The translations under genes and the position numbers were made by a program. A stretch of DNA of 60,047 nt, filler included, from Circinaria calcarea (lineage: Eukaryota): NCBI GenBank assembly GCA_051942165.1. It is 8 parts of 8 records of this genome, joined end to end, with 100 filler letters (N's around TTAATTAATTAA, not from the genome) between each part and the next. Parts side by side here need not be neighbours in the genome. Positions count along the whole stretch, not along the records: positions 1 to 7,425 come from JAVECS010001331.1; 7 more parts are not named here. One strand, given 5' to 3'. The notes beneath the pieces are model-generated. The model saw nothing but the letters and a program-made list of their open reading frames with translations. It was not told where the DNA came from and did not search any database. Position 1 is the first letter of the stretch. Each line of letters starts with the position of its first letter. Positions 1-4,154 of this stretch are shown here, piece after piece.

Positions 1-802
1 GACGAAGGGAGGGTTGGGGGGTGGAGGTGAAGGGTAAGGAAGGCTCCACAACTCCCTGGAGGGCAATAATCAGCAGACGAATACGGCGAAATCCAAATCA
101 ATACCAGTCTCAGCCAAAGGATTCGACGATCAAGCGTAAAGCCCCCGAAGTACACCAAAGAAAGGATCGGCCATGAACAGGTCAACTTCCCACGATAATG
201 GCGTCCGAAGTGGAAGGGACTGTGTAAGTTCAGCGGGAAACCATACATAGCTATTTCCCCTCTCGAAATAGACCGGTTCTACATCAGGCATAGTTAGGCA
301 GGTAAATAGAGAACAAGAGATGGGGTTATGAGGGCTAGACCACTACGTCCTGATGAAGATGGGGCCTGGGAGGATATGCACCTACCTGTGCTAGAAGCAT
401 GGTCGGTCTAGTATAGAAGATGGGGTAGTCGATTAGATACTTGTAATACCAAGGACACAGGTAAAGGCAGAGGCACAGGGTTTTCAAGATATATTTTAAG
501 ATAGCGTAGATATATACGTTATTGGATGTATAGAAGCTATCTAGCAAACAAAAAACCAACCAGCCACCAATATGCCAGTTCCTTTGCTACTCCCATTGTC
601 AACCACGCATAGCGTGTTAATCTGCTAGAGATCTCGGAGGTTCATTGCAAGGACATATACCTCACCTTACCCAATAATACTAGAAGGGTTTTCTGCTTGC
701 ACGCACCTCATCGAACGAAATCTGTGACGAGTATCAGCTATCACGGCTCCTCGCTGAAAAATGTGTGCAAACATTGGCAGAAATAGAAAGTGGAGCGGGG
801 GG

Positions 803-898
803 GTAATCAGTTCTCCAAGGTGAAATTAGGTGTTTTTCTTCAATGAAGTTGGGTTCTCGGAAAGAACACAGCGAATTGTTTTGGGATTCATCATGTAA
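803..898 (-). ncRNA. Box C/D snoRNA, U55/SNORD55-like; predicted dual guide for 25S Cm and 5.8S Am
   Basis: Box C ATGATGA 894-888, D' CCGA 860-857, C' TTGAAGA 843-837, D CTGA 810-807. D guide TTCACCTTGGAGA is antisense to LSU UCUCCAAGGUGAA. D' guide TTCGCTGTGTTCTT is antisense to 5.8S AAGAACGCAGCGAA with one G-U pair. Confidence 0.85.
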
Positions 899-1151
899 AG
901 ATTATTAAATATTGACCAGGGGGGGAGGGGGGAAGCTTACCGCTAATCGTTCAGCGGTTTAGTCTGTCCAAAAGGTTAGGTTTAGTTCCGCATCTGGTTT
1001 GAAAAACGCCGAGGAGTTAGTACAGCTGCACGAGATGATGAACTGGTGAAACTCCATAGCGGGCGGTAACAGGCCATTTGTGAAATCAGGCTCTAGGAAG
1101 GGTTGTTAACAAGGTTGACCCGGATGGATGAGGGAGAGGCCAGACAAACCA

Positions 1152-1255
1152 TTAAATCAGTATTTTCAGTGTTTGGTACGTTCATCACCAGACGAATGCC
1201 CTCGTTACAAGGCGGTTGTCGGTTCAAACAGTGTGAATGGTGTTCATCATTTTAA
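1152..1255 (-). ncRNA. snR51: Box C/D snoRNA, snR51-like (25S Um2729 and Um2724, yeast numbering)
   Basis: Box C ATGATGA 1250-1244, D' TTGA 1227-1224, C' GTGATGA 1188-1182, D CTGA 1160-1157, terminal TTAAA/TTTAA stem. Guides ATTCACACTG and ACACTGAAAAT are antisense to 25S GAUUUUCAGUGUGAAU. It is third in the order snR41-snR70-snR51. Confidence 0.85.
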
Positions 1256-1385
1256 AGAAAGTGGCCGTTGTTCAAGTAACGTAGGACGACGGGAAGAATG
1301 TACCTAGACAACATAGCAGATCAGTATACGAAACCTGCTATGAAACTTCTTGCGGTGGAATATGGCAAGTGTAGGTGTAGATGTG

Positions 1386-1525
1386 TTGATCAGCTGACGA
1401 GTTCTCAACAAGTACTTCTCCCGCCAAAAGCATCCACCAAGGTCTGTAACGCCTCGGCTTTGTATGGGTGCAGTGAGAAAGAGTACGCAGTCTGTCCGCC
1501 CGTTCGTTCAAAGTTCTTCATGTAT
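1386..1525 (-). ncRNA. snR70: Box C/D snoRNA snR70 (18S Cm1639)
   Basis: Box C ATGAAGA 1521-1515, guide ACGGGCGG followed by D' CAGA 1494-1491, D CTGA 1393-1390. The fifth nucleotide upstream of D' pairs with the C of CACCGC*CCGUC. It lies between snR41 and the snR51-like RNA, as in yeast. Confidence 0.8.
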
Positions 1526-1642
1526 TGCGTAGTACTAGGGAGGGAGTTGGTATGGGACGAGAGCTAATTACCTGCAGATGGTGTAGATATGTTAGCAGTG
1601 TTTCATTCGACTTTTGTGGTGCATTGGGAGGATTTCTCAGTC

Positions 1643-1737
1643 GGTGTCAGACAAGGCTGAAACTTTGTAAGAGACAGAATCGACATTGATTGTTCAGATT
1701 GAGGAATGCCTTTCCGCGTCGTATTGTCATCACACAA
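1643..1737 (-). ncRNA. snR41: Box C/D snoRNA snR41 (18S Gm1126)
   Basis: Box C GTGATGA 1733-1727, D' CTGA 1697-1694, D CTGA 1650-1647, short terminal stem. D guide AAGTTTCAGCCTTG is antisense to 18S CAAG*GCUGAAACUU. The D' guide GGCATTCCTC is unassigned. Confidence 0.88.
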
Positions 1738-1896
1738 GAGGGCAAGGTGTAAAGAAGCTTGGATAGGCCATACCTTAATAATGCATCATATTGGAGGTTT
1801 ACAGCACGATCGTTAATAACCTAGATAACTGCGATTCACCGTCAGCTCTTCGGCTCGAAATGAAGAAGTTGTAAAGCGCATGTTATGTTCTTGGGA

Positions 1897-1979
1897 AACA
1901 TCAGAGTAATTCTAGAGTAATGTTGATCATTCATGACGCTATATGATTTGGATTGTTCATGTAAAAGCTCATCTTGTGT
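1897..1979 (-). ncRNA. Box C/D snoRNA, U45/SNORD45-like (18S Am, equivalent to human Am159)
   Basis: Box C variant AAGATGA 1975-1969 and D CTGA 1904-1901. Guide CTCTAGAATTAC is antisense to 18S GUAA*UUCUAGAG. It lies inside intron 2010-1829. Confidence 0.78.
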
Positions 1980-2470
1980 AGCAATGTCATTGGAATAGGG
2001 AGAGACGTACGGTATGAAAACTAAATAGGACATGTTGATGTTGCAGCGTTATTGCACAATATTTGGAGGTTGAGAAAATTGGAAAGTCGACGATTTGTTA
2101 AAAGACCAAGACTATACTAGTGTGTCGGTTCTCGGATAAATACATGCTTCCGAATCCCTACGAGTCGCTCTACTCCGTAGCCTAGTAACTAAAACGGCAC
2201 AGACTGCAAAGAAGCAGATTATAGTAAAGAAGCTTCTTTAATTAGGGGTAACTCTCTTCTCAAAGTGAACCAAAGCCTTTCTAGCAATGCACTGGGCACA
2301 CTGACATTCATTATAACCGACGTAGCCACCTGGATATCCCTAACTCCGATTCGATGCAGCTGTGTACTGTACTCCAGAGACTTAGGCCTTTTAAGATACC
2401 TTACCTTAGCTCATTTGTAGTCTTCGGGAGCGTTCCCATCTGACTTCGAACTTGTGGTGAAGAGTTATGC

Positions 2471-4154
2471 CTAGGCAAGATCTTCTGCAACCTCCATCTC
2501 CTCGCCCTCCTCATCATCCTCAATCTCTGCGTCTCCCCCATCTCCATCTTCCACAAACACATTCTCTATTCCCACCTCTTTGAGCCTGGCTTGCATTTCC
2601 TCTCTCCTCTTATCCTGCCACCGCTGCAACGCCGCCGCGGCATGTACCTTGAAGCCAAAGATCCTGGGTTCATACCTCGAAATGGACTTATCCGGTATCA
2701 GGGCAGGGTAAACTTGAAAGAGTATGTTCTGGAAAGAGGAACCGAAATAGGCCCCATCGATGGTGGCATGGCGGGATGATTTCGGGTTGTATAGGTCTTC
2801 ACACTTTGCGCAGTATAGCTTTACGGTTTGAACATGAGGGAGATCGGCCATGCCGGTAGGGAGCAGATGCTCGGATTTGCAGTCGACTCGAGGGCATTTA
2901 CCAAAGTCGCCTTTCTTGAACTTCTCTAGCTTTACAAGAAGTAATTAGGCAAAGGCACCAACAAGGAAAGTGTGAACGTACCATCTTTGCTAGGCCCCTC
3001 GTTGTAGTAATATATCGAGCATGTACCAGGCCATAGAGATGTCTGGCAGACTTTTCTATCGTCTCCCGCATCTCGTCGTCGCAATCAAGATCGAAGACAT
3101 CTGTCACAAGATCTAAAGCATATTGGTAGTACTGAACATCGGTATTCAATCCAGTCAAATTGAAGCGGTCTGTCAGGTAGTCTTCGTCGATCTCACAGAA
3201 GTATTCATTGCCACGAGAAGATATAAACTGCGCCAGTAAAATTAGCTCAAGATCCCAACAACGCAGGCATGAAATTAGATACAGTCGAAAGAATGAAAAG
3301 GTGAAAATTTGAGGATTGACTAAAGAGAGCTTGAACGAGAGTAACATGCGTATGGTGCCATTGATTTTGGTATTGATCTTCGCGCACATTACTCCCACCC
3401 GGTGTATCTCGCCCTTGAGAGAAAGGTCGAAGTAGAAGACATTATGGCTCAAGCAGAATCATGTTGCCATACCCAGTGCTTGTACGGGTTGTAAAGGCTT
3501 ATAGACTCAAAGCCTTTCACTCGGTTATCCATACGTAGTAGTGCTCCGCCGAGGTTCTTTGCTCGACCGATAGTGACGATTGCCGACGAGGAACCATCGA
3601 TCTGTGATTGTTGAATAGTAGGAGCATGGTTTGATCGATGAACAGGGCACTCCCCAAGGCCATTCCCAAGCAAAAGCCGGTAAGGATCTGCTTTTTCGTC
3701 TACTTCTCTGATTGTAAACCGCTTTGAAGGCTTGAACAGGTGACTGACATCTGGGCAAGGGTGATGTCCCTGGCCTGCGGAAGGCTCGGAGGCCATCGGT
3801 CGTTGTTTTGGTCCGACGCATGGCCTCTTCTCTGGTTCATCATCGTCCTCCTTTTCTTTCGAAACCTCTTGGCTCGAGGACGAGGTGTCAAAGTGCTCAA
3901 CGAATGAAGACACGACAGAGGTAGTAACACCATCGGCCAGAAGGATCGACTTGGTCATCCTGAAAGATTTGAAAAAATACTGCAACTAATACATACCCCG
4001 CAGAGAACCTGTGTATTGAGATAGATGCTATGGAAAGAAGAGATCGAAGAGACGCAGATCTGAGTAAGCCGAATCAAAATAAGAAAGCTCGACCTACCCA
4101 GTCTCTCCAGTAACTCGTATAGTCACTATCCGTTTGGCTATTGAAGTCATCCAT
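2471..4154 (-). CDS. CKB2: Casein kinase II regulatory subunit beta (Ckb2-type), about 253 aa
   Basis: Exons 4154-4098 (MDDFNSQTDSDYTSYWRDW), 3227-2982 (FISSRGNEYFCEIDEDY..DRFNLTGL..LYGLVHARY) and 2929-2471 (FGKCPRVDC..KLYCAKC..IDGAYFG). CK2 beta zinc-ribbon motifs are present. Confidence 0.95.
3473..3979 (-). CDS. Putative alternative (first or cassette) coding exon within CK2 beta intron 1
   Basis: Stop-free frame with ATG at 3958 and a CAG acceptor ending at 3980. It ends ...LYNPYKHW at a phase-0 GTATGG donor (3472), in frame with exon 2. Confidence 0.6.

Follow-up and report, generated by a model that had tools for sequence, protein, structure and literature searches.

In Saccharomyces cerevisiae, the small nucleolar RNA (snoRNA) genes SNR41, SNR70 and SNR51 form an intronless unit that is processed by endonuclease cleavage. 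Here we analyse a cluster of box C/D snoRNAs with the same three members at its core, located on the minus strand of a 60,047-nucleotide (nt) stretch of DNA from Circinaria calcarea (assembly GCA_051942165.1; the whole stretch is called the window). In most Euascomycetes, U45- and U55-bearing introns are inserted into the snR41-snR70-snR51 cluster (Luo 2013, PLoS One; PMC3596301). According to the same study, two interior exons were lost to leave an intron-intron-intron run, a further intron, B, lies between the snR51 antisense element and its box D, and stepwise 5'-to-3' removal was inferred from 42 expressed sequence tag products.

Parts of the arrangement have also been described in two molds. 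In Aspergillus fumigatus, the targets given are Gm1122 for Afu-455, Um2706 and Am97 for Afu-277, and Cm1851 together with Am43 of 5.8S ribosomal RNA (rRNA) for Afu-294 (Jöchl 2008, PMC2377427). The interval that holds this cluster also yielded Afu-336, a 'novel ncRNA' (28-nt cDNA, ~130 nt on northern blots) not named a snoRNA in that report; by size and interval, it may be the snR70-like RNA (~135 nt). In Neurospora crassa, CD17, CD9 and CD6 lie in a UHG-like host with short open reading frames (ORFs) only, where CD17 is a double guide, for 18S-Am154 by its D guide (U45A/C) and for 26S-Gm2875 by its D' guide (HBII-210), CD9 guides Gm1122, and CD6 guides the snR51 site of the large-subunit (LSU) rRNA (Liu 2009, PMC2780460). 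CD_17 is likewise classed as a Pezizomycotina double guide by Canzler 2018 (PMC5824354).

Our analysis of the window confirms a predicted non-coding RNA (ncRNA) host gene of filamentous-ascomycete type, running on the minus strand from ~2010 to ~720 and carrying five intronic box C/D snoRNAs in the order U45-like, snR41-like, snR70-like, snR51-like, U55-like. The locus is very probably the filamentous-ascomycete snR41-snR70-snR51 cluster ('cluster III' of Luo 2013) in a UHG/GAS5-type non-coding host, downstream of a gene for CK2-beta, the casein kinase II regulatory subunit. Every part of this anatomy has already been published for Euascomycetes, and we regard the locus as an ordinary fungal snoRNA host gene whose discovery value is low because it is one further instance of a published arrangement. 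Its use lies in annotation: five snoRNAs and an ncRNA host are placed where ORF-based annotation finds nothing, predicted rRNA methylation sites are supplied, and three of the five members turn out to be overlooked by covariance models.

Architecture and conservation of the snoRNA cluster

Two members are recognized by Rfam in a scan of the whole window: Afu_455 (RF01860) at 1645-1737, scoring 73.6 bits (gathering score 48), and Afu_294 (RF01506) at 804-898, scoring 72.1 bits (gathering score 43). A second, permissive scan of the region 200-2700 at E<=10 gave sub-threshold matches to snR67 (RF01177; 22.5 bits against 55, within 1142/1155-1254), to snR41 (RF01218; 19.3 bits against 50, overlapping Afu_455) and to the plant family snoZ101 (overlapping Afu_294), as well as the snR51 match taken up below; in each case the letters aligned in these sub-threshold matches are the guide strings. 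The snR51, snR41 and snR67 models rest on yeast-type sequences, and the snR51-like gene of the window is split by an intron.

All five units pair a C box that is canonical or one mismatch off with a CUGA. Of the CTGA boxes between 2010 and 720, 13 in all, four have in front of them, at N1/N2, a stretch that forms a duplex of 11 or more Watson-Crick (WC) pairs with a stand-in fungal rRNA. When the 20 nt preceding every one of these 13 boxes were shuffled in 500 trials, the mean number of boxes with such a duplex was 0.11 and the maximum 2, and no trial reached 4. A looser control, in which the whole sequence was shuffled and at least 9 WC pairs were accepted, gave a mean of 0.44 boxes per shuffle; it is too lenient and is superseded by the local shuffle.

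Conservation delimits the same five units. A metagenome scan with the 18-nt snR41-like guide and its box returned at least 105 loci. A set of 44 long loci (window included) extends 450 nt or more upstream and 1300 nt or more downstream, and their elements were scored allowing up to two mismatches; this set and all locus counts that follow are counts among the matches listed. In most of the long loci these elements recur and their order is unchanged (Table 1). Alignments show conserved boxes and guides separated by variable spacers, and a profile of the window against the nine related loci that share its CK2-beta neighbour contains five sharp blocks and nothing else, with an identity of 0.6-0.96 in the blocks and ~0.15-0.4 in the flanks and exons.

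Three of the 44 long loci (L211, L218 and L289) are without nearly all elements and represent a different kind of locus. In L211 and L218, ~85 nt upstream of the search pattern, a single snoRNA carries a U45-type 18S guide, CTCTAGAATTAC, with a CTG-type box as D', and a snR41-type G1122 guide as D, and the other cluster members are missing nearby. These two loci look like a different lineage in which the U45 and snR41 functions are fused in one RNA.

A preliminary description of this DNA, made from the sequence alone, had proposed five box C/D snoRNAs, one per intron, in an ORF-less host at 587..2010. The five minus-strand elements are indeed present, each preceded by a GT 5' splice site and followed by a branch-like site plus AG, and the snR41-snR70-snR51 order that it recognized recurs in related loci. 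One snoRNA per intron holds for the snoRNA-bearing introns; the number of introns is six, the sixth (1149-1093) being nested in the snR51-like gene. Nothing supports the low end of the range, 587: conserved elements stop at ~804, and 754 or 722 is the position of the final 3' splice site predicted. The flanking U45-like and U55-like members are real, in agreement with the inserted introns of Luo 2013 (PMC3596301). The host also appears to be ORF-less as proposed, since no ATG ORF in the spliced RNA predicted with assumed transcript ends exceeds 15 amino acids, and its exons, at an identity of ~0.2-0.4, are unconserved. What had been overlooked are the abutting introns, the nested snR51 intron, a second U45-like guide (to the LSU A-loop region) and a third snR51-like guide.

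The predicted introns bearing snR41, snR70 and snR51 abut without an exon, leaving two zero-length 'exons' at AG 1573-1572 / GT 1571-1570 and AG 1305-1304 / GT 1303-1302. The first junction (YAG/GT) is present in all 73 evaluable related loci. The second is found by a strict pattern in 38 of 55, and several of the 17 misses are near-variants (AAG/GT, or a GC donor). With no exon between them, these introns would have to be removed one after another or via alternative acceptors. We envisage that one precursor would be transcribed by RNA polymerase II, that splicing would free the introns, and that debranching and exonuclease trimming would then reduce each excised intron to its box C/D core, giving five methylation guides; sequence anatomy, conservation and complementarity are read directly from the DNA, and the transcription, splicing order and RNA ends of this scheme are predicted from them.

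Predicted exon 1 contains, at 2035-2023 (minus strand), a 13-nt complementarity (12 WC) to 18S 807-819 of the stand-in L026; it has no adjoining box, is unconserved and was taken as chance.

Table 1. Predicted features of the cluster, with numbers of long loci (out of 44, among the matches listed, up to two mismatches) that carry each guide
Feature	Positions	Strand	Signals and pairing	Predicted target	Long loci
Intron A	2010-1829	minus	GTACGT 2010-2005; branch-like CTGAC 1845-1841; AG 1830-1829 (alternative AG 1822-1821)
U45-like / N. crassa CD17-like double-guide snoRNA	~1979-1899	minus	C-like AAGAUGA 1975-1969; C' 1934-1927; D CUGA 1904-1901
U45-like D' guide (A-loop element)	1959-1948	minus	then AU, then D'-like CAUA 1945-1942; 12 WC	G in LSU A-loop region, 3/3 LSU 3' stand-ins	40/44
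U45-like D guide	1917-1905	minus	12 WC + 1 GU	N5 = 18S A154 (L026) / A156 (L032)	31/44
Exon 2	1828-1774	minus	55 nt (47 nt if 3' splice site is 1822-1821); unconserved
Intron I	1773-1572	minus	GTATGG 1773-1768; branch GCTAAC 1596-1591; AG 1573-1572
snR41-like snoRNA (Afu_455)	1737-1645	minus	C GUGAUGA 1733-1727; D CUGA 1650-1647
snR41-like D' guide	1711-1701	minus	then AAU, then CUGA 1697-1694; 11 WC to L013	A in caacgAggaau, second 18S site, ~1568
snR41-like D guide	1665-1651	minus	14 WC + 1 GU	N5 = 18S G1122 of L026
Intron II	1571-1304	minus	GTAATT 1571-1566; branch-like ACTGAT 1325-1320; AG 1305-1304
snR70-like snoRNA, ~135 nt	~1525-1386	minus	C AUGAAGA 1521-1515; D CUGA 1393-1390; internal hairpin with CGUACAA-type loop
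snR70-like guide ACGGGCGG	1503-1496	minus	then A, then D' CAGA 1494-1491; 8 WC	18S decoding-site strand; N5 = C1634 of L026	38/44
Intron III	1303-994	minus	GTACAT 1303-1298; branch ACTAAC 1021-1016; AG 995-994
snR51-like snoRNA, 5' part	1254-1150	minus	C AUGAUGA 1250-1244; C' GUGAUGA 1188-1182
snR51-like D' guide	1238-1229	minus	then U, then UUGA 1227-1224; 10 WC	LSU U	42/44
snR51-like third guide	1172-1162	minus	then A, then internal CUGA 1160-1157; 11 WC	LSU U lying 5 nt upstream of the one addressed by the D' guide	26/44
snR51-like 18S (A100-type) guide ACUGAUUUAAUG	1161-1150	minus	12 WC, perfect to L032	N5 = 18S A101	40/44
Nested 57-nt intron (matching 'intron B' in Luo 2013)	1149-1093	minus	GTTTGT 1149-1144; branch-like TTAAC 1108-1104; AG 1094-1093
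snR51-like snoRNA, 3' part	1092-1084	minus	AGC + terminal D CUGA 1089-1086 + 2 nt; AGCCTGA conserved
Exon 3	993-941	minus	53 nt; unconserved
Intron C	940-754	minus	GTAAGC 940-935; AG 755-754 (alternative: branch-like GCTGAT 738-733, AG 723-722)
U55-like snoRNA (Afu_294)	898-804	minus	C AUGAUGA 894-888; D' CCGA 860-857; D CUGA 810-807
U55-like D' guide (5.8S)	875-861	minus	13 WC + 2 GU	N5 = 5.8S A42, 3/3 stand-ins	25/44
U55-like D guide	824-812	minus	then A before D box; 13 WC	N5 = LSU C1848 (L013, L012), C1846 (L006)	34/44
Conserved blocks against nine CK2-beta-syntenic loci	1975-1901; 1735-1646; 1523-1388; 1250-1150 with 1092-1086; 898-806	minus

Predicted rRNA targets of the five snoRNAs

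Targets were predicted by base pairing with stand-ins for the organism's rRNA, namely fungal rDNA fragments present as contaminants in bacterial assemblies, which were recovered with two standard primers and one LSU motif and delimited by Rfam. The stand-ins are L026 (complete), L032 (5' part) and L013 (3' part) for 18S; L026, L012 and L013 for 5.8S; and, for LSU, L013, L012 and L006 (5' two-thirds) and L191, L188 and L208 (3' third). Target positions follow stand-in numbering, and the methylations are predicted from pairing throughout. A scan of genome contigs with a sarcin-ricin-loop motif returned 109 loci, archaeal or bacterial, none of which blastn or a second motif matched to a fungal LSU. 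The 18S of L013 has two ~230 nt insertions relative to other fungal 18S, and in a further stand-in, L173, Rfam detects a group I intron within the LSU.

The preliminary description had put the antisense stretches at 8-14 nt in the D/D' +5 register; the measured guides are 8 to 15 nt long, close to that claim, and all ten pair with the stand-in rRNAs at N5. The sites addressed agree with those predicted in print for N. crassa CD17 and for the three clustered A. fumigatus RNAs, Um2706 and Am97 of Afu-277 included. The yeast equivalents of the predicted sites are presumably 18S G1126, C1639 and A100, and 25S U2724 and U2729. The two predicted targets of the U45-like RNA are the equivalents of 18S Am154 and LSU Gm2875 of N. 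crassa, and GAUGA cores occupy the place of its C box in related loci. The preliminary description did not recognize the predicted sites of the two flanking members as S. cerevisiae methylations, and Liu 2009 (PMC2780460) lists CD17, with 18S-Am154, without an S. cerevisiae homologue.

The D' guide of the snR41-like RNA addresses a second 18S site, which is absent among the targets given for Afu-455 (PMC2377427) and CD9 (PMC2780460) in the accessible parts of those reports. Among 106 loci, this guide occurs as GGCATTCCTC in 64, GGAATTCCTC in 9 and GGGATTCCTC in 3, and is of another kind or unreadable in 30; the matching 18S site occurs among the stand-in fungal rDNAs as GAGGAATTCC (8), GAGGAATGCC (3) and GAGGAATCCC (1). 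Every one of these guide variants exactly complements one rRNA variant. It looks as though guide and target change together, judging from loci that are not paired with their own rRNAs.

The snR70-like RNA has 48 distinct homologues of 128-139 nt. In an alignment of 47 sequences (the window and 46 homologues, excluding L286 and L288), the C box, the guide and the 3' part are invariant, and each of the four stem pairs of the internal hairpin is changed on both sides in 5 to 15 sequences. Two interior stretches with 18S complementarity, 1453-1440 (18S 1422-1435) and 1442-1425 (18S 934-951), were rejected as guides: both are variable among relatives, belong to the covarying hairpin and are followed by no box. 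RNAalifold also paired the guide (~1502-1494) with the stretch before and into box D (~1398-1391; alignment columns 26-34 with 135-142) through six pairs, all invariant and without covariation, which could be a self-masking fold or chance.

For the snR51-like RNA, the LSU 3' stand-ins place the two predicted target uridines 5 nt apart, and the internal CUGA behind the third guide is itself part of the 18S guide.

Several observations weigh against the assignment as a five-member cluster in a spliced non-coding host. The Infernal/Rfam check proposed in the preliminary description succeeds for the snR41-like and U55-like members (Afu_455 and Afu_294, at gathering score) and fails for the other three: the snR51 (RF01214) match within 1142/1155-1254 stays below gathering, at 27.7 bits against 44, and the U45-like (~1979-1899) and snR70-like (~1525-1386) units have no Rfam match at E<=10. 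In the U45-like RNA, both the D' box (CAUA) and the C box (AAGAUGA) are degenerate, and the snR70-like guide comprises 8 bp only. The targets are those of stand-ins and not of the organism's own rRNA; against L026 18S, the snR41-like D' guide has one mismatch (it is perfect only to the L013 variant) and the A100-type guide has two. The introns are predicted from splice signals and the conservation of these signals, and the host transcript is likewise a predicted one; its start and end are uncertain, as are two of its 3' splice sites (1829 or 1821; 754 or 722).

The predicted intron nested in the snR51-like gene

Removal of the nested intron would create AAUG-AGC-CUGA, with the same spacing as in the Rfam yeast snR51 consensus, and the 18S guide would adjoin the D box only once these 57 nt are gone. 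A GT..AG intron of 46-68 nt that restores AAUG-NNN-CUGA is present in 41 of 51 evaluable loci, and seven carry the uninterrupted string AATGAGCCTGA, identical to the predicted spliced product. Three loci were unclear by script; by eye, two of them (L243 and L246) have the donor shifted one base earlier, with an unchanged product. The nested donor thus takes one of three offsets: in the window it follows AAUG immediately, in most loci it lies 2 nt later (GTATGT-type), and in two it lies 1 nt earlier. The constancy of the product despite these three donor offsets argues for selection on the spliced RNA.

The third guide stands before an internal CUGA, and a short form of the RNA ending near 1155 is therefore possible. 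The nested intron might then act as a switch between two D boxes, so that, through a choice of splicing within an intron, one gene would give two guide RNAs with different targets. If the intron were retained, the RNA would end at the internal CUGA (1160-1157), measure ~100 nt and guide two LSU uridines 5 nt apart; if it were removed, the terminal CUGA (1089-1086) would adjoin the 18S guide in an RNA of ~114 nt directed to the 18S A100-type site. We advance this tentatively, as a possible but rather doubtful reading. Both halves of the idea are in print (Luo 2013, PMC3596301; Canzler 2018, PMC5824354): snR51 needs the nested splice according to Luo 2013, and the internal CUGA is the D box according to Liu 2009 (PMC2780460) and Canzler 2018, the latter because 25S-2724 is scored there as a D-box target. 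Our literature search found no paper testing a snR51 splice switch and no RiboMeth-seq paper on the snoRNAs of filamentous fungi. Should both forms accumulate, splicing of a tiny intron would set which rRNA position is methylated, and the switch, if true, would offer a simple way for ribosome heterogeneity to arise in nature.

Maturation of the snR51-like RNA solely as the short unspliced form, ending at the internal CUGA, would make the nested intron an ordinary host intron and the A100-type guide a relic. N. crassa CD6 was cloned as a 76-nt RNA with the LSU D' target only and was called exon-encoded (PMC2780460), and in L233 and L248 the C box and the internal CUGA are likewise 76 nt apart, a coincidence of length; moreover, Canzler 2018 (PMC5824354) scores 25S-2724 as a conserved snR51 D-box target in Onygenales and part of Dothideomycetes. 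Against this reading, AAUG-AGC-CUGA is preserved across three intron offsets and equals the uninterrupted gene in seven loci, and the A100-type guide persists in 40 of 44 long loci. Am97 in 18S is predicted for Afu-277, a 100-nt cDNA (PMC2377427), and in L266, which we judge from visual comparison with the Afu_455 consensus to resemble Aspergillus most, the spliced form would measure 96 nt and the short form 82 nt, so that the 100-nt Afu-277 fits the spliced form better, again as a coincidence of length. We consider exclusive use of the short form unlikely; the sequences themselves allow both the spliced and the short readings.

The CK2-beta neighbour and comparison with described clusters

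Upstream of the cluster, tblastn detects CK2-beta-like ORF pieces at 2471-3452 on the minus strand, and the presence of several pieces implies that this gene has introns. Its end (2471) lies ~460 nt upstream of the first host 5' splice site. The sequence from the CK2-beta stop to the first host exon includes a partly conserved patch with the string TATAAT (2314-2309, minus strand), which could be the promoter of the host gene.

The same strand and the short distance of ~460 nt, together with synteny in nine related loci, would fit snoRNA introns that lie in the 3' untranslated region of the CK2-beta mRNA, which would make the host protein-coding. Fifty loci extend 1500 nt or more upstream; CK2-beta stands there in the same orientation in nine, and the cluster is independent of it because it is kept without an upstream CK2-beta in the other 41. 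Homologous clusters are moreover intergenic or hosted by an ncRNA in Jöchl 2008 (PMC2377427) and Liu 2009 (PMC2780460), and the TATAAT-like string between the two units adds weak evidence in the same direction. A CK2-beta host is thus improbable. That the C/D-like motifs and rRNA complementarity arose by chance in intergenic DNA can be dismissed as next to impossible, for although single ungapped 10-12 nt rRNA matches do arise here, several of them in unconserved stretches, two elements reach the Rfam gathering score, none of 500 shuffles equals the observed count of box-adjacent guides, and five blocks are conserved in order over dozens of loci while the flanks are not, which already refutes this reading.

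With the non-coding snoRNA host retained as the preferred reading, the locus can be set beside the known systems. It resembles mammalian hosts of the UHG/GAS5 type in having one snoRNA per intron and poorly conserved exons without a meaningful ORF, and differs from them in snoRNA content. To our knowledge, neither zero-length exons nor an intron inside a snoRNA is a feature of those mammalian genes. The S. cerevisiae SNR41-SNR70-SNR51 unit has the same middle order, and the window shares guide strings with the Rfam snR41 and snR51 consensus sequences. The yeast unit differs in having no U45-like or U55-like member, and the guide string of yeast snR41 D' is absent here.

The mold clusters are closer. 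N. crassa CD17 has the same two guides as the U45-like snoRNA of the window (PMC2780460). The table of that report, as far as it is accessible, is without snR70, any U55-like member or any 18S A100-type target, unlike the window, and treats CD6 as exon-encoded. In A. fumigatus, where Afu-455 lies together with Afu-277 and Afu-294 between Afu1g09740 and Afu1g09760 (PMC2377427), two members of the window's cluster reach the gathering score of Rfam families derived from these RNAs, and the predicted sites agree for Gm1122 in 18S and for 26S C ~1850 together with 5.8S A 42/43. In its accessible parts, that report presents three clustered, intergenic snoRNAs with no host or intron model, leaving the U45-like and snR70-like members unnamed. 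The closest match is cluster III of Luo 2013 (PMC3596301), which has the same order on one strand, namely U45 (intron A), snR41 (I), snR70 (II), snR51 (III) and U55 (C); the lost exons and intron B are common to both, and we see no essential difference between that cluster, as described there, and the locus in the window.

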